Origin: Bacteroidia bacterium
GTDB lineage: Bacteria > Bacteroidota > Bacteroidia > NS11-12g > UBA9320
Assembly: GCA_965216465.1 (NCBI GenBank)
Contig: CBDCFW010000006.1
Location: forward strand, 192,001-256,000
Length of the DNA stretch: 64,000 nucleotides
Direction: 5' to 3'
Below are positions 15,820 through 29,705 of the stretch, piece by piece. Under the pieces are notes generated by a model. The model had not been told where the DNA came from and did no database searches. It was given only the letters and a program-made list of their open reading frames with translations. The position numbers were made by a program, and so were the translations under genes. How positions within the stretch are numbered: the stretch's first letter is position 1; every line of letters starts with the position of its first letter.

Positions 15820-16851
15820 ATGAAGAATACAATTCTTGCTGCATTTCTTGTGGCTCTATCTGTGGCAAGCTTTGCCCAAGACAATTCTCTAGAAGAAAAA
15901 CAAAAAGAACTTGCTGCGGCTGAAGAAAAATTAAAGCAGGCACAGCAACAAGTAGATTTGTTGAAATCTGAGGTCGACGCTTTAAAACCAAAAGAGTATT
16001 GGAAAAAAGGTGGCTTTACTGCACTTAATTTCAACTCACTGGGATTAACAAATTGGGCAGCTGGGGGTGTACAATCCAACTCTGTAACTGCGTTAGGAAA
16101 TCTTTATCTCAATTACAATAAGGACAAAATTGACTGGACAAATAATCTTGACCTTGCCTATGGATTAATTCAGAATCAAGGTGAAGACATCCGTAAAAAT
16201 GAAGATAAGATTGACTACTTAACTAAGTTTGGGCGACAGGCTACAAAGAAGTTAAACTACGCCGCTTTATTCAATTTTAAATCACAATTTGCTCCTGGTT
16301 TTGACTTTAGTGATCCGGACGAGAACCGTCCTGCCATTTCAAAATTTCTTGCACCAGCATTCGTGATTACTTCTTTAGGAGTTGATTACAAGGTAACAGA
16401 TTATTTCTCGGTCTTCGTTTCTCCAGCTACGGGTAAATTTACCATTGTAAATGATGATAGTATTGCTGCAATGAATGCTTATATCCCAGCAACAGTAGAC
16501 GACGATGGAATTCAGTTCTATAACGACAACTTCAGAGCTGAGTTTGGTGCTTTGATTAATGCAATAGTTTCGAAGGACCTTACCAAAAAAATAAACTTAA
16601 AATCGACACTAAACCTGTTTAACAACTACACGGATAAAAACATCGCAAACCGAAAAAATATTGATGTGAACTGGGAAACCATGATTAACATGAAACTCAC
16701 CGATTATATCGGCGTTTCAGTCTTCACGTACCTCATTTACGATGACGATGTTGACATCTCAATCTTTGACGACAATGGCATTGAAATTGGGATGGGACCA
16801 AGAACTCAGTTTAAGCGCGTTTTAGGTGTAGGATTTTCTTACAAATTTTAG
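15820..16851 (+). CDS. DUF3078-like outer-membrane protein
   Basis: Signal peptide, NWAAGG, RKNED, FLAPA, C-terminal GVGFSYKF. Confidence 0.8.
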   Translation: MKNTILAAFLVALSVASFAQDNSLEEKQKELAAAEEKLKQAQQQVDLLKSEVDALKPKEYWKKGGFTALNFNSLGLTNWAAGGVQSNSVTALGNLYLNYNKDKIDWTNNLDLAYGLIQNQGEDIRKNEDKIDYLTKFGRQATKKLNYAALFNFKSQFAPGFDFSDPDENRPAISKFLAPAFVITSLGVDYKVTDYFSVFVSPATGKFTIVNDDSIAAMNAYIPATVDDDGIQFYNDNFRAEFGALINAIVSKDLTKKINLKSTLNLFNNYTDKNIANRKNIDVNWETMINMKLTDYIGVSVFTYLIYDDDVDISIFDDNGIEIGMGPRTQFKRVLGVGFSYKF

Positions 16852-16920
16852 GGTTTAATCATCTCACTGTATTGTAAAAATTAGAAGAGCCTTAGTTATG
16901 TTCTAAGAAAACTTTTAATT

Positions 16921-17361
16921 TTGTCACTTCTGAAAAACAGGTCTGAACATATTAAGTCATTGATAGCTGGTGCCTTTGCATTAGTTGTTTTGTTCAGTAG
17001 TTTTGGAATGAGCTTTGGTTTTCATTTATGTAAGAATGAAATCAAAGACTTTAGTTTCTTAGGAAACGTTGAAGAATGTTCAAGCGACGGAATTTCATGT
17101 CAGGAAGAACCTATTCCTCTAAACTCAATTACTAGGACCCCATGTTGTCAAAATCAAAATATATACAGTCAATCTGTATTTTTTGATGATGCTCCTGTAC
17201 TTCTCGTTTCAAATTCTGACTTTGAAATGAAGCCAGCATTTAGTTTGCTTGAATTGAATCCATCAATTAATGCAGCTTCAAAGTATGATTTCGACCTCAG
17301 ACCTCCTCCCGACATTTATGCTCCTGAGCTAAATATTCTTATTCAATCATTTCTAATTTAG
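16921..17361 (+). CDS. HYC_CC_PP-type Cys-rich leader protein, copy 1
   Basis: Hydrophobic N-terminus, HLC, CC, RPPP; start uncertain because TTG 16921 overlaps TAATTTTG at 16916-16923 (CTG 16930 possible). Confidence 0.75.
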   Translation: MSLLKNRSEHIKSLIAGAFALVVLFSSFGMSFGFHLCKNEIKDFSFLGNVEECSSDGISCQEEPIPLNSITRTPCCQNQNIYSQSVFFDDAPVLLVSNSDFEMKPAFSLLELNPSINAASKYDFDLRPPPDIYAPELNILIQSFLI

Positions 17362-17425
17362 GATTACTAGTGACCTAGTTTAATGACCATGCTATGTTTG
17401 GTCAAGTTATTATATAATCCAAATT
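17355..17425 (+). promoter_or_regulatory. Predicted mRNA hairpin overlapping the leader-1 stop codon and the next gene's initiation region
   Basis: AATTT/AAATT, GGATTA/TAATCC, TAGTGAC/GTTATTA (G-U pairs) and TGACCA/TGGTCA nested arms; no U-tail; ATG at 17429. Confidence 0.6.
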
Positions 17426-17428
17426 GAA

Positions 17429-17650
17429 ATGAAAAAAAACATATTAATCTTAGTAATAATCGCATTTGCAGGAATATCGTATACAGCCTGCAGTTCAAAT
17501 CAAGAAAAAGAAGTTGACCGTACAGGCGTAGAATACACCTCGTCTTACATCTGCCCCATGCACTGTGAGGGTAGCGGAAGTGAGCACCCTGGCAACTGTC
17601 CTGATTGTGGAATGAAATATGTTGAAAATCCCGATAGCACTTCACATTGA
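17429..17650 (+). CDS. Small lipoprotein with heavy-metal-binding domain
   Basis: Lipobox YTAC; YICPMHC...PGNCPDCGM. Confidence 0.88.
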   Translation: MKKNILILVIIAFAGISYTACSSNQEKEVDRTGVEYTSSYICPMHCEGSGSEHPGNCPDCGMKYVENPDSTSH

Positions 17651-18660
17651 AATGTAGGACACACATATCGATTCTAATTACATGCATAATACTGCTCTCT
17701 GCATGCGAACATGATCCTGCTTTGGATATAAACAGCAAGCTTTTTGATACTCCTGACCACTTTGCTCCTATGAAGTTTCCTGAAGATAACGCGTATACTT
17801 CAGACCGTTGGGAGCTAGGGAAAATGCTATTTTTTGACAATCGATTGTCAAAAGACTCAACTTTGAACTGCGGGAGCTGTCATAAACCGGAATTATCATT
17901 CAGCGATGATGTGGCTTTTAGCCCGGGTGTTGAAAACAGGCCTGGTGTTCGTAACTCTCCGAGTCTTGCAAACATTGGATACCACCCATATTTTACCCGC
18001 GAGGGTGGTGTAGCAACACTCGAAATGCAAGTACTAGTACCCGTGCAAGAGCACAACGAATTTGACTTCAACATAGTTGAGATAGAAAAACGACTTTCGT
18101 CTGATTCTGCCTATCAACAAAAAAGTAGAAAAGCGTATAACCGTAATTTAGATTACTATGTAATTACGCGAGCCATATCAAATTTTGAACGTAGCTTAAT
18201 CAGTGCATCAAGTACTTACGACCAATTCTTAACAGACGACCTGACATTAACTGGTGAAGAAATCGCTGGCATGGACTTATTTTTTAGCTCCAAAACCAAC
18301 TGTTCATCATGTCACAGTGGATTTAATTTTACAAACTACAACTTCACGAATAATGGCCTTTATAATGACTATAACGATGAAGGCAGAAAACGTCTTACCG
18401 GATTAGACAAAGATGACGCAGTCTTTAAAGTGCCAAGCTTACGCAACGTTGAGCTAACCGCTCCTTACATGCACGATGGGTCACTACCTTCACTTGAAGC
18501 GGTAATTAATCATTATAATTCTGGAGGGATGAGTCATGCAAACAAACATGAATTGATAAAACCTCTTCACTTAACACAAAAAGAACAAGAACAGCTGATC
18601 GCATTCTTAAAAACATTAACAGATCATAAATTTATTAATAATCCAATATTTAAACCATGA
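17647..18660 (+). CDS. Di-heme cytochrome c peroxidase/MauG-family enzyme, MbnH-like, paralog 1 (lipoprotein)
   Basis: CGSCH, CSSCH, FKVPSLRN, PYMHDG...HY; lipobox LSAC. Confidence 0.9.
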   Translation: MKCRTHISILITCIILLSACEHDPALDINSKLFDTPDHFAPMKFPEDNAYTSDRWELGKMLFFDNRLSKDSTLNCGSCHKPELSFSDDVAFSPGVENRPGVRNSPSLANIGYHPYFTREGGVATLEMQVLVPVQEHNEFDFNIVEIEKRLSSDSAYQQKSRKAYNRNLDYYVITRAISNFERSLISASSTYDQFLTDDLTLTGEEIAGMDLFFSSKTNCSSCHSGFNFTNYNFTNNGLYNDYNDEGRKRLTGLDKDDAVFKVPSLRNVELTAPYMHDGSLPSLEAVINHYNSGGMSHANKHELIKPLHLTQKEQEQLIAFLKTLTDHKFINNPIFKP

Positions 18661-19622
18661 AAAAAATCACAACAAAAATGCTTTTTGCGCTCGCATTAAG
18701 CCTAATTCTGGGAGCTCCTACTCAAGCTCAAACCAATATAAAATTAAAAGTGAATCACTTACTGGGATCCGAAGACTTTGGCTTCCAAAAAATAGCAAAA
18801 AATGATATAGGCAATGAATTCGTAGCCCTACGACTTGAATATTACATTTCTGGCATCACTTTGATTCATGATGGAGGACAAGAAACAACCTTGAACACTT
18901 ATATACTTCAAGATGCAGCCGATGACGACACTGTATCAATAGGTTCAGCAAATATTTCTTCTTTAGAATCTCTTAGCTTTTTCATCGGAGTTGATAAAAC
19001 AAACAATCATGCAGACCCATCAAAGTGGCCATCAAGCCATGCTTTGGCTCCAAAATCTCCATCAATGCACTGGGGTTGGGCTTCGGGCTACCGTTTTGTT
19101 GCTCTTGAAGGTGCTACAGGTGCCAACATGAACAACAAATTTGCAATTCACGCTTTAGGTGATAAAAACTATTTCGAAATGAACATTCCTACCACAGGTG
19201 AAATGATAAATAACAATTTAGTCATTGTATTGAATGCAGATTACACCAAATTGCTTTCTCAAATTAATTTGTCAACTGGCGTATTTAATCATGGAGAAGA
19301 TGATGAAGCGGCTGAATTACTTAGAAACTTCCAAACTAAGGTATTTACAAATATGTCAGGAGAAGGAAACACACTAAGTGTTGAACCTGTCAAAATCACT
19401 AATGCTTTTAGCATCAATCCAAATCCTAGCCATGGAAACTTCAATATTCAAGTTTTAGATTCTCGCTTGCTTAACGCAGAAGTTGAAATCAGAGATCTAA
19501 CTGGCAGAATAGTTTCTGAAAACACCTATTTAAACAATCTTCCTACACTTTCTGCAGGGGTGTATCTTGTAGCTGTTAAGAGTGAAAATATTATTAGCAC
19601 CCAAAAATTAATTGTGAACTAA
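18657..19622 (+). CDS. MbnP-like WxW protein with T9SS type A C-terminal domain
   Basis: LEYYIS, GVD...NH.DP, MHWGWASGYRF; C-terminal NPNPS...DLTGR...GVY...QKLIV. Confidence 0.82.
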   Translation: MKKITTKMLFALALSLILGAPTQAQTNIKLKVNHLLGSEDFGFQKIAKNDIGNEFVALRLEYYISGITLIHDGGQETTLNTYILQDAADDDTVSIGSANISSLESLSFFIGVDKTNNHADPSKWPSSHALAPKSPSMHWGWASGYRFVALEGATGANMNNKFAIHALGDKNYFEMNIPTTGEMINNNLVIVLNADYTKLLSQINLSTGVFNHGEDDEAAELLRNFQTKVFTNMSGEGNTLSVEPVKITNAFSINPNPSHGNFNIQVLDSRLLNAEVEIRDLTGRIVSENTYLNNLPTLSAGVYLVAVKSENIISTQKLIVN

Positions 19623-19623
19623 T

Positions 19624-20709
19624 ATGAAAGTAAGAATATTATCAATTATCCTAGCACTTATTGCTATCGGAATTTGGAGTTGCAAAGACGACGAACCTGC
19701 TGAAGCTATCGTTCACGATACAACCCCATACGAGTTAGATTATGGAAGCTTTCTTCCACCATCCATTGCTGAAGACAACCCACTAACGATACAAGGGGTT
19801 AAACTAGGTCGAATGCTATTTCACGAGAAGATGTTATCGAAAGATGAGTCGCAATCCTGTGCAACATGTCACATTCAAGAATTTGCGTTTAGTGACACTG
19901 CAACGCTGTCTATTGGAGTTCAAGGTCTTCCTGGTAAGCGACAGGCTATGGCTGTCTTTAATATGGCATGGAATATCAATGAATTCTTTTGGGATGGCAG
20001 AGCTCACCTTCTGCGTGACCAATCATTACTCCCCATACAAGACGAACTTGAGATGGATGAAACATTAGATGGGGTAATCGCAAAACTGAATGGTAGCCAG
20101 ATGTATAAAGACCAATTTATGCGTGCTTTTGGAAGTGAGGAAATTACTTCAGAGAAAATGTCACTTGCCATGGAGCAGTTTATGAATTCTATCGTATCAA
20201 CTAATTCAAGGTACGACGAGTTCTTAGAAGATTCTGCGGTCTTTACTGCAAGCGAGAAGAGAGGTCATGATTTATTTTTCCAAGAATACAATGAATTTTT
20301 TCCTGATGAAAGTGGTGCAGATTGTGCTCATTGTCATTCTGGTTTAAATTTTGAGAACGACGAATACATGAATAATGGTCTAGATGCAGGAGCTGATCAA
20401 ACTGATATTGGCAGAGAAAGCGTAACTTCCAATGCTCTCGATAAGGCTAAGTTTAAAGTTACCTCACTTAGAAATATTGAAGTAACAGCACCTTATATGC
20501 ACGATGGTCGATTTAAAACTTTAGAAGAAGTTGTAGAACACTACAATTCTGGTCTTAAAGGTTCTGCATCATTAGATCCAGCACTTGAAGCAACACGGGC
20601 AACTGGACTCATGCTAACTGAGCAAGACAAGGCCGATTTAGTGGCGTTTCTTAAAACTTTGACAGACCAATCATTGTTAAATAATAATAATTACACTGAT
20701 CCGTTTTAA
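19624..20709 (+). CDS. Di-heme MbnH/MauG-like enzyme, paralog 2 (lipoprotein)
   Basis: CATCH, FFWDGRA, CAHCH, PYMHDG...HY; lipobox WSC-KDDE. Confidence 0.9.
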   Translation: MKVRILSIILALIAIGIWSCKDDEPAEAIVHDTTPYELDYGSFLPPSIAEDNPLTIQGVKLGRMLFHEKMLSKDESQSCATCHIQEFAFSDTATLSIGVQGLPGKRQAMAVFNMAWNINEFFWDGRAHLLRDQSLLPIQDELEMDETLDGVIAKLNGSQMYKDQFMRAFGSEEITSEKMSLAMEQFMNSIVSTNSRYDEFLEDSAVFTASEKRGHDLFFQEYNEFFPDESGADCAHCHSGLNFENDEYMNNGLDAGADQTDIGRESVTSNALDKAKFKVTSLRNIEVTAPYMHDGRFKTLEEVVEHYNSGLKGSASLDPALEATRATGLMLTEQDKADLVAFLKTLTDQSLLNNNNYTDPF

Positions 20710-20721
20710 ATTTGCAGTTCA

Positions 20722-21102
20722 ATGAGCAAGGTTTTATCCATATTGTTAAGCTTTTTATTCTTGATCACATCTACTGGTGTTCATCTTGATTTCGCTTATT
20801 GCGGAGATGAGCTGATGCATATTGAATTCTCGCACAGCGATGATATGCAAGAGTCTTGCTGTTTGGCAGATACGCAATATGACTGCTGTGAAACACAAGA
20901 GATTGTTCAAGACCCTCAATTGTTGGACTATATCCCGGTTTCTTCATTTGAGTTTGGATCTGTTCCTTTTGCTATTCTTGATTACCAAGACGTCAGTGTT
21001 AATGTCTTATCAGCTCAAGAGATTTCTCTTGATCATCTACCTAGACCACCTGACTTAGTTCAGGAACACTCCGCTCCTTTCTTGCAACGTTTTATTTGTT
21101 AG
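20722..21102 (+). CDS. HYC_CC_PP-type Cys-rich leader protein, copy 2
   Basis: Hydrophobic N-terminus, AYCG, SCC, DCC, PRPP; own TAAATTTG -7 element at 20707-20714. Confidence 0.8.
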   Translation: MSKVLSILLSFLFLITSTGVHLDFAYCGDELMHIEFSHSDDMQESCCLADTQYDCCETQEIVQDPQLLDYIPVSSFEFGSVPFAILDYQDVSVNVLSAQEISLDHLPRPPDLVQEHSAPFLQRFIC

Positions 21103-21147
21103 TACCTGATTACTGCATTGGCTTTAATCATACATTAACAAATAAAA
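21090..21147 (+). promoter_or_regulatory. Predicted mRNA hairpin overlapping the leader-2 stop codon and the receptor's A-rich initiation region
   Basis: TTTTATTTGTTAGT (21090-21103) pairs with ATTAACAAATAAAA (21134-21147); inner TGATTA/TAATCA stem; TTG start at 21154. Confidence 0.72.
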
Positions 21148-21153
21148 AAACAC

Positions 21154-23406
21154 TTGAAAAAAATATTAATATTCATGGTTGTTACGCTCGTAAGCGTAGT
21201 AACCGTTGCACAAGACCAACATAAATATGTAAACGGTGTTGTGTTATCGATTGATGGAGATCAAAAAACTCCTATTCCAGGTGCGTTCGTACGCTGGATA
21301 GACAAGAAAGCAGGAGTATTTACCAACGACCAAGGTAAATTCTCAATTATGCACATGGGTGAAAGCCCTTCTTTAGTTGTATCGTATGTATCATTTAAAT
21401 CTGATACTATTGCGATTGATGACATTTCAAAACAATACACTGTTATCCTTCAGGATGAAACTGAAATTGGTCCAGCAATTGTGCTTGGAAGAAGAATTAG
21501 TTACGGACTTTCTCGGTTAAGCCCACGAACAACTGTTCTTTTAGGTGAAAGAGAATTTCAAAAGGCAGCATGTTGTAACCTTTCTGAAAGCTTTGAAAAT
21601 GCCCCTGCAATTGATGTAAGCTTTTCGGATGCTGTAACTGGTACTAAGCAGATTAAGATGCTTGGGTTAGATGGTTTTTATACCTTAATCGGAAGAGAAT
21701 ACATGCCCGCAGTTAGAACGTTAAACTCCTATTACGGCTTAAGTCTGATTCCTGCAGCGTGGGTTGAAGGTATTCAAATCACAAAAGGAGCAGGAAGTGT
21801 TGTAAACGGACATGAAAGCATGGCTGGACAAATCAATATTGAAATGAAAAAGCCATTCGGAAACACCAATTTCTTGCTCGACCAATTTGTTTCGCAGGGA
21901 GGAAGAGCCGAAACAGACTTTGTGTACCGAAAAGACCTAAATAAGCATTTAGCTACTTCAATTCTTGCTCGATACTCTTTTCAGCAAATTGAAAACGACA
22001 GAAACAACGATGGTTTCTTAGATATGCCAAAAGGAAATCAGTTTCAAATCATGAACAGATGGCAATTCGCAACTGACAACGGATTTGAAGGTATTGCAAC
22101 TGTTTCATACAATCAAGATGAGAAACTAGCCGGCCAGAAAGAGTTTTACCACGAAAACGACAGTTCATATGGCGTAGAACTCAACACTAAACAATTTGAT
22201 GCAATTGCTAAGATTGGTAAGACCTTTAAAAACAAACCACTTACAAGTCTAGGTAGCCAGTTTTCATTTAATAAAACCTTGTTTGATGGAAATTATGGTA
22301 GTCGATTTAATCCTAACGAGTATCGTGGAGAGTCCTCAACCTTTTACATGAACTTGTTGTATCAGTCGATCATCAAAAACAGCTTTCATCAGTTTCAAAC
22401 AGGTATATCGTTAACTTCAGATCAAATTGAAGAATCTTACCAAGATTTTCGTTTTTCAAGAACAGAAACAGTTCCAGGGGCATTTTTTGAATATACCTAC
22501 AAACCAAAAGAAACGTTTAGCTTGGTTGGAGGAATTCGGACCGATTACAACTTATTATATGGTTGGTCTGTAACACCTCGTATTCATTCAAAATACAGAT
22601 TTAACAAGGAGAAAACTGTGATTCGGGTATCAACAGGAATGGGACGAAGAACTTCAAATCCATTGGCTCAAAGTCAACAGATTTTCACCAGTAGCAGAAA
22701 CATCAATTTCTCTATATCTGATATAAATCTACCCTACGGACTTGAACAAGAAGTTTCGCTAAACTCTGGATTAAGCTTCGAACACGATTTCCATCTGACC
22801 TATATGCCCGCTACCATAGGCCTTGATTACTTCAATACTACATTCTTTAATGAAGTAGTGGTTGACCGTGAAGTGCCAGGCGAGGCCAGCTTCTACAACA
22901 TGAAGAATGGAACGCGTGCAAATAGTTTTCAAACTCAACTCGATTTAAAACCTGCACGAAGAACTGAAGTTCGACTAGCTTATAGAATGTTTGATGTTCA
23001 AACAAAATATAACAACCTGGGTTATCTAGCTAAACCTTTTATTTCAAAGCATCGTTCTTTCATTAATGTAACACAAAGAACGCGTTCTGGGTGGCAGTTT
23101 AGCAGCACAGGAACTTGGTACGGTCCTCAACGAATAGCTGGCAGCTATGAGCAAGCAGGAGACAATAAAATTGTTCAGAACGAATCTCCAAGCTTTGTTC
23201 TGGTAAATGCTCAAGTGAGTAAGACCATTAAAAAACAATTTGAAATCTATACCGGAGTTGAGAATATGTTAGACTACAGACAAGACGATCCTATACAGGA
23301 TGCTGTTGATCCATTTGGATCAAATTTCGATGCAGGGTTAGTCTGGGGACCTGTCTTTGGCCGAATGATTTATGGTGGCTTTAGATGGAGAATTCATGGA
23401 GAATAA
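21154..23406 (+). CDS. TonB-dependent receptor with CC motif in plug (metal uptake)
   Basis: Carboxypeptidase-regulatory-like N-domain, KAACCNLSESF, ITKGAGSV...AGQIN plug, C-terminal GRMIYGGFRW. Confidence 0.92.
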   Translation: MKKILIFMVVTLVSVVTVAQDQHKYVNGVVLSIDGDQKTPIPGAFVRWIDKKAGVFTNDQGKFSIMHMGESPSLVVSYVSFKSDTIAIDDISKQYTVILQDETEIGPAIVLGRRISYGLSRLSPRTTVLLGEREFQKAACCNLSESFENAPAIDVSFSDAVTGTKQIKMLGLDGFYTLIGREYMPAVRTLNSYYGLSLIPAAWVEGIQITKGAGSVVNGHESMAGQINIEMKKPFGNTNFLLDQFVSQGGRAETDFVYRKDLNKHLATSILARYSFQQIENDRNNDGFLDMPKGNQFQIMNRWQFATDNGFEGIATVSYNQDEKLAGQKEFYHENDSSYGVELNTKQFDAIAKIGKTFKNKPLTSLGSQFSFNKTLFDGNYGSRFNPNEYRGESSTFYMNLLYQSIIKNSFHQFQTGISLTSDQIEESYQDFRFSRTETVPGAFFEYTYKPKETFSLVGGIRTDYNLLYGWSVTPRIHSKYRFNKEKTVIRVSTGMGRRTSNPLAQSQQIFTSSRNINFSISDINLPYGLEQEVSLNSGLSFEHDFHLTYMPATIGLDYFNTTFFNEVVVDREVPGEASFYNMKNGTRANSFQTQLDLKPARRTEVRLAYRMFDVQTKYNNLGYLAKPFISKHRSFINVTQRTRSGWQFSSTGTWYGPQRIAGSYEQAGDNKIVQNESPSFVLVNAQVSKTIKKQFEIYTGVENMLDYRQDDPIQDAVDPFGSNFDAGLVWGPVFGRMIYGGFRWRIHGE

Positions 23407-23408
23407 AA

Positions 23409-24119
23409 ATGGAAAAGATTCAATTTAATATATCAGGAATTTCGTGCATGTCTTGTGTAAGCAAGCTTGAAAAAGCCTTTTATGGCAATGCCAACATTAA
23501 GCAAGTTGCGATTGACCAAGAATCTGGAAACACAAACTTACAATTTGAGGGTGAGCTAAATACTGATGAAATAGAATCGATAATAAAAAGTGCTGGCGAC
23601 TACGCATATCATGCAACAGAAGTTGAAGAGAAACGGTCTAGTAAATGGGTAACATACCGGCCGTTAATTTTAATCGTTGGCTACCTATTATTGGTTACGT
23701 TAACATTAGAATTTAGCTCGGGAATGTTCTTAATGGAAACCTGGATGGCAAACTTTATGGCAGGTTTCTTTATTGTTTTTTCGTTCTTTAAATTTTTAGA
23801 TTTAGGTGGATTTGCAAAAGCCTACAGAAGCTATGACATCATAGCTAAAAAAGTAAAATTTTATGGTTATGCATTTCCATTTGTTGAGTTAGCATTGGGT
23901 ATCTCATACCTTTTGTTTTCTGACTTAGCTATAACACATCTCATTACAGCAATTATTATGTTTGTAAGTCTCGTAGGTGTGGTTAATTCAGTGCTCAACA
24001 AATCTGAAATTCAGTGTGCTTGTTTAGGCACGGTCTTCAACTTGCCCATGAGTTATGTAACCATAATCGAAGACACCGTAATGCTTGTTATGGCACTATT
24101 TATGTACTTTAGAATATAG
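23409..24119 (+). CDS. HMA domain fused to MauE/DoxX-like membrane domain
   Basis: GISCMSCV HMA motif; several TM helices; IQCACLG; ATG 23409 preferred start. Confidence 0.87.
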   Translation: MEKIQFNISGISCMSCVSKLEKAFYGNANIKQVAIDQESGNTNLQFEGELNTDEIESIIKSAGDYAYHATEVEEKRSSKWVTYRPLILIVGYLLLVTLTLEFSSGMFLMETWMANFMAGFFIVFSFFKFLDLGGFAKAYRSYDIIAKKVKFYGYAFPFVELALGISYLLFSDLAITHLITAIIMFVSLVGVVNSVLNKSEIQCACLGTVFNLPMSYVTIIEDTVMLVMALFMYFRI

Positions 24120-24123
24120 ACAC

Positions 24124-24876
24124 GTGAAAAAAATATTAATAATAACAACAGTACTTGCATTCTTTGCATCATCGTGCGGGCCAGAAACTGTAGATCCTCC
24201 AGTTGAACCGCAGGAAGTTCAAGAAATGACGCTAAACTTCGCTCCAAAATTTGATGGAGGAAGTTTTGAGCTGCTTTCTAGCACTTACACTTTAGCCAGT
24301 GGCGAAGAGGTAGAATTCAAACGATTTGCGGCATTGTTTAGCAACTTTTATCTGATTAATGAAGATGGGTCGAAACTGATGCTTGACGACCAATACGCTT
24401 TTCTAAACCTTAATAAAAATCAGATGTCAGTAACACTGACTGAGATTCCAAAAGGAAATTATAAAGGTGTTGGATTTATGTACGGATTGGATTCAGCAAT
24501 CAATCATGGTCCGACTAACCAATATCCTATCGACCATCCATTAAACACATTCAACAATTCGTTGTATTGGGATTGGGCAGGCGGATACATATTCTCAGCC
24601 ATCGAAGGAGGAGTAGCAAATTCTAATGAAAAATTTGTGTTTCACTTGGCAGGAAGCATGAATACAATCAATTATGAGCTTCCTATGGTCTTTACTAAAG
24701 ACAATAAAGCACTTCAAGCAGAGATTGATTTGCATATGGATGAAATCTTCAAGAACCCTGAGGTTTATAGCCTTGAGAATGACGGAACGAGTGTGCACAA
24801 TGCCCTTGATGCCGTGACCACAAAGTTAATTGGCAACATGGGTGATATATTTAGTTTAATGAGTGTTTCAGAATGA
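24124..24876 (+). CDS. MbnP-like WxW lipoprotein
   Basis: GTG 24124 start gives MKKILIITTVLAFFASSC lipoprotein signal; GLD..INH, HPL, LYWDWAGGYIF, FHLAG. Confidence 0.82.
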   Translation: MKKILIITTVLAFFASSCGPETVDPPVEPQEVQEMTLNFAPKFDGGSFELLSSTYTLASGEEVEFKRFAALFSNFYLINEDGSKLMLDDQYAFLNLNKNQMSVTLTEIPKGNYKGVGFMYGLDSAINHGPTNQYPIDHPLNTFNNSLYWDWAGGYIFSAIEGGVANSNEKFVFHLAGSMNTINYELPMVFTKDNKALQAEIDLHMDEIFKNPEVYSLENDGTSVHNALDAVTTKLIGNMGDIFSLMSVSE

Positions 24877-25982
24877 AGCTAGGAAAGTATTCCATATTAC
24901 TCTTAATAGTTCTGGGAATCTGGGCTTGTAAGGATGTTGTAAACGAACTTCCAGATACACCGTTCGAAACAACGCCCTATAGCATTGAAATTCCTGGAGG
25001 ACTATTTAAAGCAAGTTTTCCCCCTGATAATAGACCTACTGAGGAAGGTGTTTATCTCGGGAGGATGCTGTTCTACGATCCAATTTTGAGTGCTGATAGC
25101 ACCCAGAGCTGTGCGTCTTGTCACAATCAAGAATTTGCATTTACAGACAATGAGAAGCAGTTTAGCGAAGGAATTAGAGGACTCGAAGGCAAACGAAACT
25201 CAATGCCTATTTTTAATCTAATGTGGCATATGGATGGTTTCTTTTGGGATGGACGGGCTGAGTTGTTAAGACATCAATCTTTGCTTCCAATTCAAGATCC
25301 TTTGGAAATGGATGAAACTTTGGGCAACATGCTGGTTAAGCTTAACGCTTCCGATATGTACAAAGAGCACTTTAAGAAAGCTTTTAACATCGACGAAATT
25401 GATGAAGAACATGTGAGCATGGCCTTAGAGCAATTCATGATGATTATCATTAGCGGTGATTCTAAGTTTGATCGCGTAAACGCTGGTCTCGAAACATTAA
25501 CTGGTCAAGAAGAGGTAGGGAGAATTGTTTTTGGAGAAGAAGCTATTCCTCTAAAACTAGAGCCAGATCCAGATAATCCACAAAACTTTGGGGCTGATTG
25601 CTTCCATTGCCATGGCAACCCGTTGTTCATGCGCCGCGAGTTTGGAAATAATGGACTCGATTCTGTGCTTACAGACAAAGGTTTAGGAGATGTAACCGGC
25701 TTGGCTACCGACGATGGCAAATTCAAGACTCCTAGCTTAAGAAATATCGAAAAAACAGCTCCATATATGCATGATGGACGATTTAATACGTTAGAAGAAG
25801 TAGTGGAGTTTTATTTGAATGGAGCACACGCTAACTCTCCAAACATAGACCCCAACATGCATGCTCTTCAAGATTCCGTATATTTGAGCCCTGAACATAA
25901 AGCGGCTTTAATTGCGTTCTTAAAGACATTAACAGACGACAATTATTTAACAAACCCTGAATATTCAAACCCTTTTAAATAA
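24873..25982 (+). CDS. Di-heme MbnH/MauG-like enzyme, paralog 3 (lipoprotein)
   Basis: CASCH, FFWDGRA, CFHCH, PYMHDG...FY; lipobox WAC; ATGA overlap. Confidence 0.9.
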   Translation: MKLGKYSILLLIVLGIWACKDVVNELPDTPFETTPYSIEIPGGLFKASFPPDNRPTEEGVYLGRMLFYDPILSADSTQSCASCHNQEFAFTDNEKQFSEGIRGLEGKRNSMPIFNLMWHMDGFFWDGRAELLRHQSLLPIQDPLEMDETLGNMLVKLNASDMYKEHFKKAFNIDEIDEEHVSMALEQFMMIIISGDSKFDRVNAGLETLTGQEEVGRIVFGEEAIPLKLEPDPDNPQNFGADCFHCHGNPLFMRREFGNNGLDSVLTDKGLGDVTGLATDDGKFKTPSLRNIEKTAPYMHDGRFNTLEEVVEFYLNGAHANSPNIDPNMHALQDSVYLSPEHKAALIAFLKTLTDDNYLTNPEYSNPFK

Positions 25983-25990
25983 AAGAAATT

Positions 25991-26347
25991 ATGAAAAAAA
26001 TACTTTTAGCACTATTAATGGTAAGTACAGTAGCTGTATTTGCTAAATCCGTGACCAAAAAAATAGAGGTTAAAGGAGAATGCGACATGTGCAAAGAAAA
26101 AATTGAAGCAGCTTTAGACATTCCTGGTGTATCATTTGCCGAATGGGATATTGAATCTAAAATGCTAACTGTTCGCTATAACGACAAAAAAGTAACTGAA
26201 GATCAAATTCATACTGTAATGTCGGAACTTGGTTATGCTACCAGTAAAATGGCGGCAAATAAAGAGGCACAAAACAAGTTAGATGACTGCTGTAAACCAC
26301 AAGAGAAAAAAGGCTGTTGTTCGAGTAAGAGCAGCTGTAAAAAATAA
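25991..26347 (+). CDS. Exported HMA-domain metal chaperone with Cys-rich tail
   Basis: Signal peptide, VKGECDMCKEKIE, tail DDCC...GCCSSKSSC. Confidence 0.9.
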   Translation: MKKILLALLMVSTVAVFAKSVTKKIEVKGECDMCKEKIEAALDIPGVSFAEWDIESKMLTVRYNDKKVTEDQIHTVMSELGYATSKMAANKEAQNKLDDCCKPQEKKGCCSSKSSCKK

Positions 26348-26352
26348 ACTTT

Positions 26353-26380
26353 AAAGACCGGCTAAGCCGGTCTTTTTTTT
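26353..26380 (+). terminator. Intrinsic terminator closing the metal locus
   Basis: AAAGACCGGC-taa-GCCGGTCTTT followed by a T run. Confidence 0.9.
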
Positions 26381-26392
26381 GATTATCGAAAA

Positions 26393-27070
26393 ATGCGTTA
26401 CTCGACAATTTTATTATTATCCGTTTTTGCTATCACCTTTAGTGGTTTCACACATAAGGAGATTAAGCCAAAGGCTGTGGTATACACATCCGAGATGAAT
26501 GTAATCTACCACGACATGCCAAACCCATTAATTGTTCATCTTTATGGAGTCAGCTATGACGATATTTCTGTCTCTGCCAGCGGTGCAACTGTAGAAGCTT
26601 CCAAAAAGAAAAGAGGATACTACACCATTAGGCCAACAACCGGATCTAGAGAAGTAAGAGTATTGGTCGCTGGTAAAAATAGTAAAGGCAAAATGGTGGT
26701 CTTGAGCAAGCCTATGTTTAAGGCTAGGAGAATCCCAACCTTTCCTGCTAGAATTGGAGCTTTAGCAAATAACGGCAAACCAGTTTCTCACCAAGCCATT
26801 CATGCACAACGAAGAATGACAATTGATGTATCTGGATTCCCATATTATTTAGAAACAGAAATTGCTTCGTTTAAAGTTACCGTGTATGACCACAATGGGA
26901 AAACTGAATATTTTCATGATAAGAACAATTTCACTAAAGAATTCAGAAATCATTTAAAATTCTTAAGAACAGGCAACGCCGTTGCCGTTTCAGAAATTAA
27001 ATACACAATTAAGGGTAGTGATTCAAAAATGGTTTACAATGCACCTTCGGTCTATGTACCGATAAGATAA
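26393..27070 (+). CDS. Stand-alone GldM/PorM C-terminal-domain-like exported protein
   Basis: MNVIY...NPL.V...GV and FKARRIP resemble GldM distal domains; signal peptide. Confidence 0.65.
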   Translation: MRYSTILLLSVFAITFSGFTHKEIKPKAVVYTSEMNVIYHDMPNPLIVHLYGVSYDDISVSASGATVEASKKKRGYYTIRPTTGSREVRVLVAGKNSKGKMVVLSKPMFKARRIPTFPARIGALANNGKPVSHQAIHAQRRMTIDVSGFPYYLETEIASFKVTVYDHNGKTEYFHDKNNFTKEFRNHLKFLRTGNAVAVSEIKYTIKGSDSKMVYNAPSVYVPIR

Positions 27071-28385: not shown

Positions 28386-29705
28386 ATGAAACCCTTACTG
28401 ATCGCTGTAATTGTATTGCAAAGTTTTTGGCTTTCGGCCCAGAATGTAGCTTTTGAGTTGAGCGAAATGAATTTGGCCTACATCGGACTAGAAAATCCCC
28501 TCAATGTTGCCATAAGCGGTGTAGACCAAGAAGATGTAATTGTAAAAACCTCAGAAGGATGCAGCTATGCAAATGGCAAGCTTAAAGTTACACGTAAAGC
28601 TCGATTGTGTAAGGTGCATGCCGGCTACCTCGATCAGGGTGATACGGTTTGGGTAGATTCTACTATTTTTCGTGTAAGACGGCTGCCGATGCCTAGAGCA
28701 CAACTGGGGGCAATACCAAATGACGGCCAACCAAAAGGGAAAGCGGCAATCATGACACAACAAAAACTGTTAATTTCAATGGGAGCTGGATTTGCTTATA
28801 ATTTCAGTTACTCCGTTACTGCCTATAATCTCATCGTGGTCTATAAGGATGCACCACCAGAGATGCATAGTGCTAGCAGTTCAAGATTAACCGGAGCAAT
28901 GAGAACTTCAATCCAAAAAATTAAGCCAGGCGACAAGTTAATTTTTGAGGGAATTAAGGTGGTTCAGGATAACTTTGGAACCCGTCATAATCTTTCTCCT
29001 ATCATTATTGAGGTAGCAGGAAGTTCATTAATTAATCAGTCGCATTTCGACCAATATGCCATTTTTTACAATGGTCATCAAATTGACACCCTGACGATTG
29101 GAACATTTGGTATAAATAAACGACTTCGAGAGTTTAAAACGGGAGAAGTACATTTTTTCACGTCCGATGAGTTTGGGTATCACAGAATAGAGAAAAAGTA
29201 TAAAAAGGGCATTGAAATTAGTAATGAAAGGTTTGATCACTACGGTAGAAAAGTTTCAAGTTTGATCCGAATTGACAGCAATACTTGGAATTACAGGAAT
29301 TACTATCCCAATGGAAACATAAAAATTGAAACCCTTCACAAAGAAGGTATAGTACTGAGGGCTTCAGACTCCTTATTTCACTGCAAATTTTCAGGTCATT
29401 TGGCTTATTACGAAGAAAGTTGTGAGTTCTTCGAGCAATTCAGAGAATTGGGTTTGCTTCACTTCAAACACTCAATTAACCCATCCAATTTTTTTAAGCT
29501 ATATCATGAGAATGGTGTTTTGGCTCAGGAAGGAGAACTCGCCATTATTGAAGGCGAAGATTTGCCCGATGGAATAATATGTGGGACTGGTATGACTTAC
29601 TATACCTACACCGACCACACTGTCTGTGATGGAAAATGGAAATTCTATGCCCAAGATGGTAGCTTGATCGAAGTCAAGAAATACCGCCTGGGCACAGAAC
29701 TCTAA
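28386..29705 (+). CDS. GldM C-terminal-like domains fused to MORN-variant repeat region
   Basis: MNLAYIGLENPLNVAISGV, FRVRRLP; YYPNGNIK, YHENG, GKWKFY..DG repeats. Confidence 0.65.
   Translation: MKPLLIAVIVLQSFWLSAQNVAFELSEMNLAYIGLENPLNVAISGVDQEDVIVKTSEGCSYANGKLKVTRKARLCKVHAGYLDQGDTVWVDSTIFRVRRLPMPRAQLGAIPNDGQPKGKAAIMTQQKLLISMGAGFAYNFSYSVTAYNLIVVYKDAPPEMHSASSSRLTGAMRTSIQKIKPGDKLIFEGIKVVQDNFGTRHNLSPIIIEVAGSSLINQSHFDQYAIFYNGHQIDTLTIGTFGINKRLREFKTGEVHFFTSDEFGYHRIEKKYKKGIEISNERFDHYGRKVSSLIRIDSNTWNYRNYYPNGNIKIETLHKEGIVLRASDSLFHCKFSGHLAYYEESCEFFEQFRELGLLHFKHSINPSNFFKLYHENGVLAQEGELAIIEGEDLPDGIICGTGMTYYTYTDHTVCDGKWKFYAQDGSLIEVKKYRLGTEL

Follow-up and report, generated by a model that had tools for sequence, protein, structure and literature searches.

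How do Bacteroidota obtain copper? Members of this phylum are abundant in soils, waters and animals, and in our sample of 401 genomes from it the copper-rich nitrous oxide reductase (NosZ) is encoded by 135. A literature search whose reach did not extend to the 2021 MbnP paper gave no account of how they do so. The question is raised by a row of eleven genes in a 64,000-nucleotide stretch of the genome of a Bacteroidia bacterium (GenBank assembly GCA_965216465.1, contig CBDCFW010000006.1, positions 192,001 to 256,000 of the forward strand). Henceforth we refer to this whole stretch as the window and count positions from its first letter. The row combines three di-heme enzymes resembling MbnH with two proteins of the MbnP family, a TonB-dependent transporter (TBDT) and five smaller proteins with conserved cysteines. 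We argue that it very probably encodes a metal-handling system of the MbnP/MbnH (MbnPH) kind; that the metal, by analogy with characterized relatives, is probably copper; and that net uptake – a copper-acquisition operon – is the best reading, one towards which the same analogies incline us with modest confidence. The locus would then be a concrete gene set for a copper route through the envelope, in which the kynurenine-based chemistry of MbnP is joined to modes of export specific to the phylum: the type IX secretion system (T9SS) and lipoproteins.

The eleven genes and their protein families

The eleven open reading frames (ORFs) are co-oriented on the plus strand between 16921 and 26347, and are followed by a hairpin:

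g1, 16921–17361, + strand: small membrane-anchored Cys protein of the HYC_CC_PP/DUF8199 family, below HYC (NF047658, 42.5 bits, cut-off 28)
g2, 17429–17650, + strand: HMBD lipoprotein, CPMHC...CxxC (PF19335, 33.9 bits, cut-off 23.6)
g3, 17647–18660, + strand: MbnH-like di-heme enzyme H1, a lipoprotein (CCP_MauG, E 9.6e-46; TIGR04039, 271.3 bits)
g4, 18657–19622, + strand: MbnP1, with a Sec signal (PF20243, 95.9 bits, cut-off 27; Por_Secre_tail, 43 bits)
g5, 19624–20709, + strand: MbnH-like di-heme enzyme H2, a lipoprotein (CCP_MauG, E 4.1e-50; TIGR04039, 242.9 bits)
g6, 20722–21102, + strand: second HYC_CC_PP/DUF8199 protein (NF047658, 41.1 bits; precomputed domain PF26622)
g7, 21154–23406, + strand: TBDT (CarbopepD_reg_2, 36.5 bits, cut-off 32.2; Plug, 26 bits, cut-off 23.9)
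g8, 23385–24119, + strand: HMA-MauE inner-membrane protein (PF07291, 51.8 bits, cut-off 27; PF00403, 25.6 bits, cut-off 24.8)
g9, 24085–24876, + strand: MbnP2, a lipoprotein (PF20243, 116.1 bits, cut-off 27)
g10, 24873–25982, + strand: MbnH-like di-heme enzyme H3, a lipoprotein (CCP_MauG, E 5.1e-51; TIGR04039, 219 bits)
g11, 25991–26347, + strand: exported HMA protein (PF00403, 30.4 bits, cut-off 24.8)
26353–26375, + strand: intrinsic-terminator-like hairpin that closes the gene row (10-pair stem with 6 G-C pairs, loop of 3, T run)

An initial annotation, made from the sequence alone, had named three MbnH-like enzymes, two MbnP proteins, and TBDT, HMA, HMBD and MauE proteins, and these family calls are borne out by Pfam and NCBIfam models together with a fold search. 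The two genes that it had left unnamed (16921–17361 and 20722–21102) belong to the HYC_CC_PP family (NF047658). Its description of eleven co-oriented, tightly coupled genes closed by one terminator likewise agrees with the ORFs, their overlaps and the 10-pair hairpin. Neighboring genes overlap by TTGA at 17647–17650 (g2/g3) and by ATGA at 18657–18660 (g3/g4) and 24873–24876 (g9/g10), and the remaining intergenic gaps range from −35 to +67 nucleotides; g6 lies 12 nucleotides downstream of g5 and 51 nucleotides upstream of g7, the TBDT gene. Both larger overlaps probably vanish, with g8 starting at ATG 23409 and g9 at GTG 24124: read this way, g8 begins with an ordinary HMA N-terminus and g9 with an ordinary lipoprotein signal. 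Terminator-like sites number 8 in total against 7.1 ± 3.1 in shuffles, so that only the placement and strength of the hairpin at 26353–26375 carry weight; the sole other plus-strand candidate in the gene row is a 5-pair stem within g5. A promoter scan returned 27 sites where 35.6 were expected and was uninformative, the promoter model not being of the Bacteroidota type. Base composition is uniform across the window. An ORF of 157 residues on the minus strand (17367–17840), antisense to g2 and g3 and rich in Cys and His by chance of the frame, was taken as spurious.

Central to the locus are the two proteins with a WxW motif, g4 and g9. They had been proposed to be MbnP, and both match the Pfam MbnP model (PF20243) above its cut-off, as does every one of the 66 aligned relatives. 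When g9, g4 and their relatives from the collected loci were combined into a 66-protein profile, it matched PDB 7l6g, labeled ‘MbnP from Methylosinus trichosporium’ in the fold search, at E 5.5e-10: the M-x-W-x-W of the profile is aligned to M-A-W-N-W, and the near-invariant His of the family to a His of 7l6g. Foldseek with the AlphaFold (AF2) model of g9 (pLDDT 91) returned only the six chains of 7l6g at E≤0.001 (5e-11 to 7e-10, probability 1.0, TM 0.49–0.57), the next match lying at E 1.4e-2. A single-sequence phmmer search of PDB with g9 gave only chance matches to plastocyanin, at E 0.15 or worse.

The copper site of MbnP, as described in passages of PMC11951088, is built from one His, one Met and a ligand from solvent together with kynurenine 174, which derives from the WxW Trp and is formed with the help of MbnH. 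All 66 MbnP-type proteins have the first Trp and 65 have the His; the counts for the second Trp and the Met are 62 and 49, the identity of the ligands being taken from that review and from residue counting, not from coordinates. The motif of g4 reads M137-H-W139-G-W141, and M137, H138, W139, W141, H165 and H212 are kept in all 31 members of its clade; that of g9 reads W162-D-W164, accompanied by His187. We conclude from these sequence and profile comparisons that g4 and g9 are MbnP proteins as Pfam defines the family, on a branch apart from the methanotroph proteins. g4 bears, in addition to its Sec signal, a C-terminal T9SS sorting domain, and the predicted destination of MbnP1 is the cell surface or the medium. 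Tails resembling the T9SS C-terminal domain occur in 28 of 31 g4-type MbnPs versus 7 of 80 other MbnP-like proteins.

The three enzymes each contain two CxxCH motifs, and in each the sequence PYMHDG is followed by a Tyr (HY in H1, HY in H2 and FY in H3). The suggestion that this residue occupies the distal-ligand position was confirmed by alignment: it falls on a Tyr of PDB 6e1c, where the canonical peroxidases 1nml and 2c1u have Met. The entry 6e1c, which carries the database label ‘Di-heme enzyme’ and which we take to be MbnH of Methylosinus trichosporium OB3b, is the best PDB match for all three (g3 8.7e-50, g5 8.4e-50, g10 9.3e-42); canonical peroxidases (1e-37 to 1e-30) and MauG rank behind it. 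The 154 distinct MbnH-like proteins of the collected loci have Tyr (147) or Phe (7) at the distal-ligand position. His/Tyr versus His/Met at the E heme is what separates MauG-type enzymes from canonical peroxidases, as set out in passages of PMC11892367. The view that the three are plain peroxidases was rejected, given the Tyr ligand position and the fixed pairing with MbnP.

It is between the hemes that the enzymes differ. The inter-heme Trp is present in g5 and g10 (FFWDGRA); g3 has YFTREGG instead, and its Arg118 aligns to the inter-heme Trp of 6e1c. At this position the 154 proteins have Trp in 101 cases, Arg in 35 and other residues in 18. A FastTree tree – quick, unrooted, and built on rows drawn from searches biased towards these enzymes – places g3 in a supported group of 20 rows, of which 19 have Arg, and g5 together with g10 in a supported group of 28 with Trp only.

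The lipoproteins of the MbnPH set show a further feature. From its lipobox Cys onwards g5 reads CKDDE. Positions +2 to +7 after this Cys include two or more acidic residues in 24 of 26 H2-type, 19 of 25 H3-type, 14 of 28 H1-type and 27 of 40 MbnP2-type proteins, of which 9, 4, 6 and 5, respectively, have the strict K-(D/E)2 motif (PMC5080379). The acidic stretch, counted in these four groups alone, resembles the lipoprotein export signal of Bacteroidota and may hint that the whole of the MbnPH chemistry lies at the cell surface.

The TBDT, g7, consists of a CarboxypepD_reg-like domain, a plug and a barrel, the last seen only via weak NCBIfam receptor matches (residues 438–718). The plug has two adjacent cysteines, C140 and C141, which like H478 are invariant when g7 is aligned with its 15 relatives at E<1e-100 (16 of 16). 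A comparison of g7 with solved structures gave no PDB match at E≤0.001.

Cysteines are conserved in the smaller proteins too. In g2, C42, M44, C57, C60 and M62 are found in 7 of 7 relatives, and H45, C46 and the candidate lipobox C21 in 6 of 7. The N-terminal HMA domain of g8 contains CxxC and is not preceded by a signal peptide; it is joined to a MauE/DoxX-type membrane domain with C211-A-C213 and seven conserved Met, and the CxxC and CxC pairs are both kept in 9 of 9 sequences. g11 combines CxxC with a Cys-rich tail (C100-C101 and further Cys), C31, C34, C100 and C101 being present in 22 of 22. In all, CxxC and Cys-Cys motifs are found in four proteins of the locus. Thiolates thus stand in pairs in every compartment, an arrangement that would fit the hand-over of a soft metal ion.

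Modules and their recurrence across Bacteroidota

Is the locus a single device? An architecture of three enzymes and two substrates had been put forward as something not yet characterized. The layout itself stands, since it is present here and recurs in a second genome; the notion of a single novel unit does not, the architecture being a conserved triad plus an ordinary MbnP/MbnH pair. Three sets of loci were annotated: 40 centered on HYC, 40 centered on MbnP (picked, and enriched for double matches and for proximity to HYC), and 80 obtained with a profile of the g3-type enzyme. These reveal that the locus is made up of three modules that also occur singly in Bacteroidota. Module A (g1–g5) comprises a HYC protein, the HMBD lipoprotein and a triad formed by the T9SS-tailed MbnP1, the Arg-type enzyme H1 and the Trp-type enzyme H2. 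Module B (g6–g8) comprises a HYC protein, the TBDT with the Cys-Cys plug and HMA-MauE. Module C (g9–g11) comprises the lipoprotein MbnP2, the enzyme H3 and the exported HMA protein with its Cys-Cys tail.

The triad is seen clearly outside the window. For the 34 Arg-type enzymes encoded elsewhere, a distance of 2.5 kb takes in a tailed MbnP in 26 cases and a Trp-type enzyme likewise in 26, some of the loci ending at contig edges. The usual order is P1-H1-H2 (P1 and P2 standing for the two types of MbnP), and in the window it is H1-P1-H2. The plain MbnP-MbnH pair recurs in many loci. A further recurrent unit is HYC with a g7-like TBDT downstream, accompanied by HMA and at times by HMA-MauE: of the 40 HYC-centered loci, 12 include a TBDT, 16 an HMA protein and 7 HMA-MauE.

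The whole eleven-gene layout has persisted through considerable sequence divergence. L126, a contig from a Bacteroidia metagenome-assembled genome (MAG), carries all eleven genes at 28–66% identity, with the same upstream flank, in the order HYC, HMBD, P1, H1, H2, HYC, TBDT, HMA-MauE, P2, H3, HMA. It is one of five loci among the 80 in which MbnPH stands beside HMA and TBDT genes. Three of the others, L158, L160 and L162, are arranged as [HYC]-P-H-HMA-TBDT, and in L142 an HMA-TBDT-HYC group is divergent from P-H1-H2. Another class, with both kinds of MbnP, is seen in L083, L086 and L088 (HYC-P2-H2-P1-H1). A TBDT lies within 7 kb of MbnPH in L093, L094 and L102; in L102 a multicopper oxidase gene, following the triad P1-H1-H2, is situated between H2 and a g7-like TBDT. 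L102 spans G207:C2:377000–396999; in the same genome nosZ is found at C2:372657–374465, about 12 kb upstream, and beyond it, at C2:361263, comes a second MbnP-MbnH pair. Enzymes of the H1 or H2 type accompany a g4-type MbnP also in L124, L129, L139 and L198, labeled as MAGs of Alphaproteobacteria, Phycisphaerales, Didemnitutus and Comamonadaceae; HYC is upstream in L124, L129 and L198 and absent in L139, and L198 has only P1 and H2. These four are probably mis-binned contigs.

Across the 401 genomes MbnP was found in 98 and HYC in 116, and one large family was devoid of either (0 of 87). The two co-occur in 62 of the 401 genomes, a figure confounded by shared ancestry and not used as support.

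HYC, which heads modules A and B, is the least familiar component. Family members are ∼125–160 residues long and start with a membrane helix, after which come HxC, another Cys, CC and PP, in that order. g1 has HxC, CC at 75–76, RPPP at 128–131 and a C-terminal FLI; g6 has AYC in place of HxC. In the family alignment H35, C37, C53, C75, C76 and P130 (g1 numbering) are each conserved at 90% or more. The spacing from CC to PP is fairly constant (median 56 residues), and in 57 of 70 members PP lies 12–16 residues before the C-terminus, the usual ending being FLI or similar. The AF2 model of g1 (mean pLDDT 67.8) has an N-terminal helix at 3–27 and a small hairpin at 32–46, the rest being of low confidence. 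HYC_CC_PP corresponds to Pfam DUF8199, for which atlas clusters come only from Bacteroidota. A word-based homologue search with g6 returned g6 alone, and neither HYC_CC_PP nor DUF8199 is mentioned in any paper found by our literature search.

A same-strand gene lies downstream of 67 of 70 distinct HYC genes, within 200 nucleotides in 59 of these (median gap 86 nucleotides). Upstream, a divergent neighbor is found in only 13, and 28 closely follow a gene on the same strand, so HYC is not always first in its operon. The gene that comes next varies: it may encode a TBDT, HMA, HMA-MauE, MbnP or DUF3347 protein, or be a long ORF. In L075 and L076 AhpC/TSA-type redoxins and an AraC-type regulator are encoded among HYC, HMA and HMA-MauE. 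A His-rich sub-type of HYC, with a long His stretch before CC and the ending FQI, occurs at L072:6954–7415, L073:77–550, L073:18380–18817, L074:160–606 and L082:13784–14191, the last of these, the one scanned downstream, being followed by a DUF3347 gene.

Relation to known metal systems

The locus shares with the MbnP/MbnH system of Methylosinus trichosporium OB3b the common MbnP fold, the M-x-W-x-W motif plus His, and an adjoining gene for a His/Tyr di-heme enzyme; a TBDT is often near MbnP/MbnH genes, according to passages of PMC3621798. It differs in that there is no methanobactin (Mbn) operon, in scores that fall below the equivalog level and in the four-Cys motif, which is mostly gone. 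A further difference is that one MbnP has a T9SS domain and two enzymes, the other MbnP/MbnH proteins here being lipoproteins.

The best functional analogue of an exported MbnP1 may be sought elsewhere, in MopE/CorA of gammaproteobacterial methanotrophs. Passages of PMC3912023 describe MopE/CorA as Cu(I) proteins, located at the surface or secreted, that have kynurenine among their ligands and are repressible by copper; they are co-transcribed with a di-heme peroxidase (SACCP/CorB), and SACCP is itself placed on the cell surface. The likeness is one of function: the fold of MopE/CorA differs from that of MbnP, as passages of PMC11951088 state, and the secretion route is another one. TBDT and HMA genes are not described with MopE/CorA in the passages of PMC3912023 that we draw on.

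For HYC the nearest parallel is CruR (DUF2946), a copper-sensing upstream ORF that, in passages of PMC9426467, controls a Bordetella TBDT operon such as bp2923-bfrG-bp2921 of Bordetella pertussis, and whose relatives head operons with TBDT, MbnPH-like and AhpC_TSA genes. As presented in those passages, CruR resembles HYC in being a small exported protein with a Cys motif and a Pro-Pro near the C-terminus, placed before a TBDT gene, and the accessory repertoire is the same. Beyond this the two part ways. The Cys motif is CC in HYC and CXXC in CruR; the PP of HYC is 12–16 residues from the end, versus 3 for the RAPP of CruR; and the median spacing of the two motifs is 56 versus 45 residues. HYC is further set apart by its short intergenic gaps (median 86 nucleotides) and by its occurrence before efflux pumps as well. 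Neither g1 nor g6 matches the DUF2946 model (PF11162), which 2 of 64 members touch at E 0.081 or worse, and a search of the ORFs of 80 loci for CxxC with a C-terminal R[AG]PP pattern found none. Homology of HYC to CruR is therefore without support in these comparisons; the two may still act alike. That HYC may be a metal-sensing leader like CruR is an analogy and not a finding.

BthA of Burkholderia is relevant to H1. Like the H1 clade it is without the inter-heme Trp, and passages of PMC11892367 report that this MauG-type enzyme still forms the bis-Fe(IV) state, its activity being called ‘cryptic’. Loss of the Trp in H1 need not mean inactivity, since BthA forms bis-Fe(IV) without it. H1 and its clade keep the Tyr ligand position despite the missing Trp. 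H1 is nearer to 6e1c (8.7e-50) than to BthA (6nx0, 9.5e-13), and has a conserved Arg at the Trp position.

There is, lastly, a resemblance to the mercury uptake pair MerP and MerT: in both systems a CxxC-bearing HMA protein that is exported goes together with paired Cys in a membrane protein. By analogy the combination suggests a thiolate relay across the inner membrane. The locus differs from the Mer system in its MauE/DoxX-type membrane domain, in its matches to Mer models, which are far under the cut-offs, and in having no MerA.

Proposed copper acquisition and the alternatives

We envisage the following route. By analogy with Methylosinus MbnH and MbnP, the di-heme enzymes would use peroxide to oxidize the invariant first Trp of WxW to kynurenine, and the kynurenine, with the invariant His (and the Met in MbnP1), would complete a Cu(I) site. 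MbnP1 would leave the cell via the T9SS and capture copper outside; the TBDT would bring the metal through the outer membrane; its recipients, in the periplasm or at the surface, would be MbnP2 and the HMA protein; and HMA-MauE would pass it to or across the inner membrane. Gene content, family membership, conserved residues and the recurrence of modules and layout are seen in the sequences; that the Trp is modified, which metal is moved and in which direction, how the hand-over is ordered and whether HYC has a part in it are inferred. Precedents for the route are the surface Cu(I) proteins CorA and MopE and the effect of mbnP and mbnH deletion, described below. Copper in particular is suggested by membership in the MbnP family, with conservation of the first Trp and the His, by the multicopper oxidase in L102, and by the CxxC and Cys-Cys motifs.

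The genome as a whole provides some context. It is 3.23 Mb in size and 100% complete, and encodes copper enzymes that such a route could supply: NosZ, two heme-copper oxidase subunits I and one multicopper oxidase. The initial annotation had noted that genes for methanobactin biosynthesis are absent from the window, and the same applies on the larger scale: neither MbnB nor MbnC (TIGR04159, TIGR04160) has a match in the whole genome, the MbnC search being the weaker one (it was positive in no control genome) and MbnA not having been searched. Outside the window there is a third MbnP-MbnH pair (G000:C6:1099030–1100762, equivalent to L103:10030–11762), with no TBDT, HMA, HMBD or HYC match within ∼9 kb. 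Genes of the CCP_MauG type total seven in this genome.

A number of points weigh against copper acquisition as set out above. The family assignments stop short of the methanotroph proteins: TIGR04039 (MbnH family di-heme enzyme) is the best NCBIfam model for all three enzymes and all three score below its cut-off of 362.85 bits, and the MbnP equivalog TIGR04052 gives 36.3 bits for g4 and 44.9 bits for g9 against a cut-off of 140. The four-Cys motif for which 7l6g was named by its depositor (‘four-Cys motif protein’) is scarcely seen, with at least four Cys after residue 35 in only 4 of the 66 MbnP-type proteins and none in 32; g4 has zero Cys and g9 only C7 and the lipobox C31. This loss may help explain the low equivalog scores. 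g9 has Leu at the position of the Met found in the solved MbnP and in 49 of 66 relatives, and H1 is without the inter-heme Trp, a residue thought in passages of PMC11892367 to carry electrons between the hemes. The TBDT is without a close characterized relative. As to genome content, NosZ and MbnP are not enriched for co-occurrence, NosZ being present in 36 of 98 MbnP genomes and in 135 of 401 overall. MbnP or MbnH lies within 10 kb of HYC in 0 of the 40 HYC-centered loci, which means that the link between the modules is occasional.

HMA and HMBD domains, moreover, are typical of resistance determinants and common in resistance systems, and the half of the locus that is not MbnPH fits metal tolerance equally well. 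HYC genes are found before DUF3347, HMA and HMBD genes. They also stand before pumps: 14 of 57 are followed, some 60–150 nucleotides downstream, by an ORF of 1214–1282 residues (among L045–L054, L063–L065, L077 and L080), the two of these that were scanned both being ACR_tran, that is, AcrB-type resistance–nodulation–division (RND) pumps, and one further HYC gene precedes a 431-residue fragment of ACR_tran. Since HYC also precedes efflux pumps its presence signals a metal operon, not uptake, and the family also marks operons that are probably for metal efflux. The locus counts derive from loci annotated with the window's own proteins, in sets chosen by the very features that were then counted, and from related genomes that are not independent.

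It is from these last observations that the strongest competing explanation draws: that the operon confers tolerance to copper or another soft metal, MbnP, HMA, HMBD and HYC buffering an excess, HMA-MauE handling thiol redox, and the TBDT-like protein not being a net importer. To the pumps and the HMA, HMBD and DUF3347 genes that follow HYC may be added its His-rich variants and the AhpC/TSA-type redoxins beside HMA-MauE in L075 and L076. TonB-dependent transporters are, on the other hand, energized importers, and a g7-like TBDT is found beside HMA proteins in 12 of the 40 HYC-centered loci; the eleven-gene row includes no efflux pump, P-type ATPase or multicopper oxidase; and MbnPH, CorA and MopE of methanotrophs are tied to copper acquisition in passages of PMC13729199 and PMC3912023, CorA being repressed by copper. 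On balance we regard tolerance as rather unlikely. 

Less probable again, and in our estimate quite improbable, is that the cell practices piracy, the TBDT importing a foreign copper chelate (a methanobactin-like chalkophore or metallophore made by neighbors) from which MbnP and MbnH strip the metal. Such a role would accord with Mbn operons, in which MbnPH stands beside the importer MbnT (passages of PMC3621798), and with a genome devoid of MbnB and MbnC matches. It would accord also with the report, in passages of PMC13729199, that Cu-bound methanobactin stays outside cells from which mbnP or mbnH has been deleted; its authors suggest that the two help either to release copper or to take up the chelator once loaded. 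In the TBDT the invariant Cys-Cys and His suggest instead a direct hand-over of metal, or from protein to protein, rather than recognition of a chelate; the T9SS-exported MbnP supplies an extracellular binder of the cell's own; the gene row has no periplasmic binding protein or ABC importer; and the TBDT exceeds the cut-off of no curated siderophore or chalkophore receptor model (NCBIfam). An equally small chance attaches to another metal (Hg, Cd, Zn or Ag, compare MerP/MerT) or to another chemistry, in which the enzymes install a different protein-derived cofactor or merely remove peroxide. Paired Cys and HMA domains define mercury transport proteins as well, and NCBIfam gave weak matches to MerP and to a MerTP fusion (31 and 25–26 bits), under the cut-offs; the missing Met in g9, the missing Trp in H1 and the ‘cryptic’ activity of BthA (passages of PMC11892367) could likewise be taken as signs of different chemistry. 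Set against this are the first WxW Trp and the His, near-invariant as in the copper site of MbnP, and the multicopper oxidase of L102, as well as the absence from the row of MerA-like or other metal reductases; the His/Tyr ligand pattern speaks against plain peroxidases.

Copper acquisition, if it is the function of the locus, lends itself to a bolder formulation. Bacteroidota might possess a protein-based ‘chalkophore’ of their own: a T9SS-exported MbnP, matured by a dedicated enzyme pair of which one member has exchanged the inter-heme Trp for Arg, that captures copper at the cell surface and feeds the TBDT and a chain of Cys pairs (the Cys-Cys of the plug, the Cys-Cys tail of the HMA protein, the CxC of HMA-MauE), with DUF8199/HYC serving as CruR-like metal-sensing leaders of uptake and efflux operons alike. 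We offer this as speculation and think it rather unlikely as a whole.

What is new here calls for some care. MbnPH pairs outside Mbn operons and beside TBDTs were noted in 2013, in passages of PMC3621798, and also in passages of PMC9426467; with such neighborhoods in print the kind of system is already known. As far as our literature search reaches (the 2021 and 2023 primary papers on MbnP/MbnH lie outside it), four features recognized from sequence appear to be new: the T9SS-tailed MbnP and the two enzymes that go with it, the clade of enzymes with Arg for Trp, the clade of Cys-Cys TBDTs with HMA-MauE, and DUF8199 as a marker of metal operons. The two enzymes of the triad are a natural variant of the MauG/MbnH theme, one of them without the inter-heme Trp, and bear on bis-Fe(IV) chemistry. 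DUF8199 is widespread, marks metal operons and may be regulatory; even if tolerance were the true function, the locus would still define partners of this family.

The genes on either side of the row are unrelated to it. Those upstream encode PspC, nitroreductase, biotin-lipoyl and DUF3078 proteins; those downstream encode GldM-like and DUF2461 proteins. The DUF3078 gene (15820–16851) is on the same strand as g1 and ends 69 nucleotides upstream of it. It is also found upstream of the L126 locus (L126:5739–6794), at 60% identity and with one extra gene, of 375 residues, in between. The GldM-like genes at 26393–27070 and 28386–29705 are short paralogues with only the third and fourth GldM domains, adjoined by the DUF2461 gene; the second of them also has MORN repeats.

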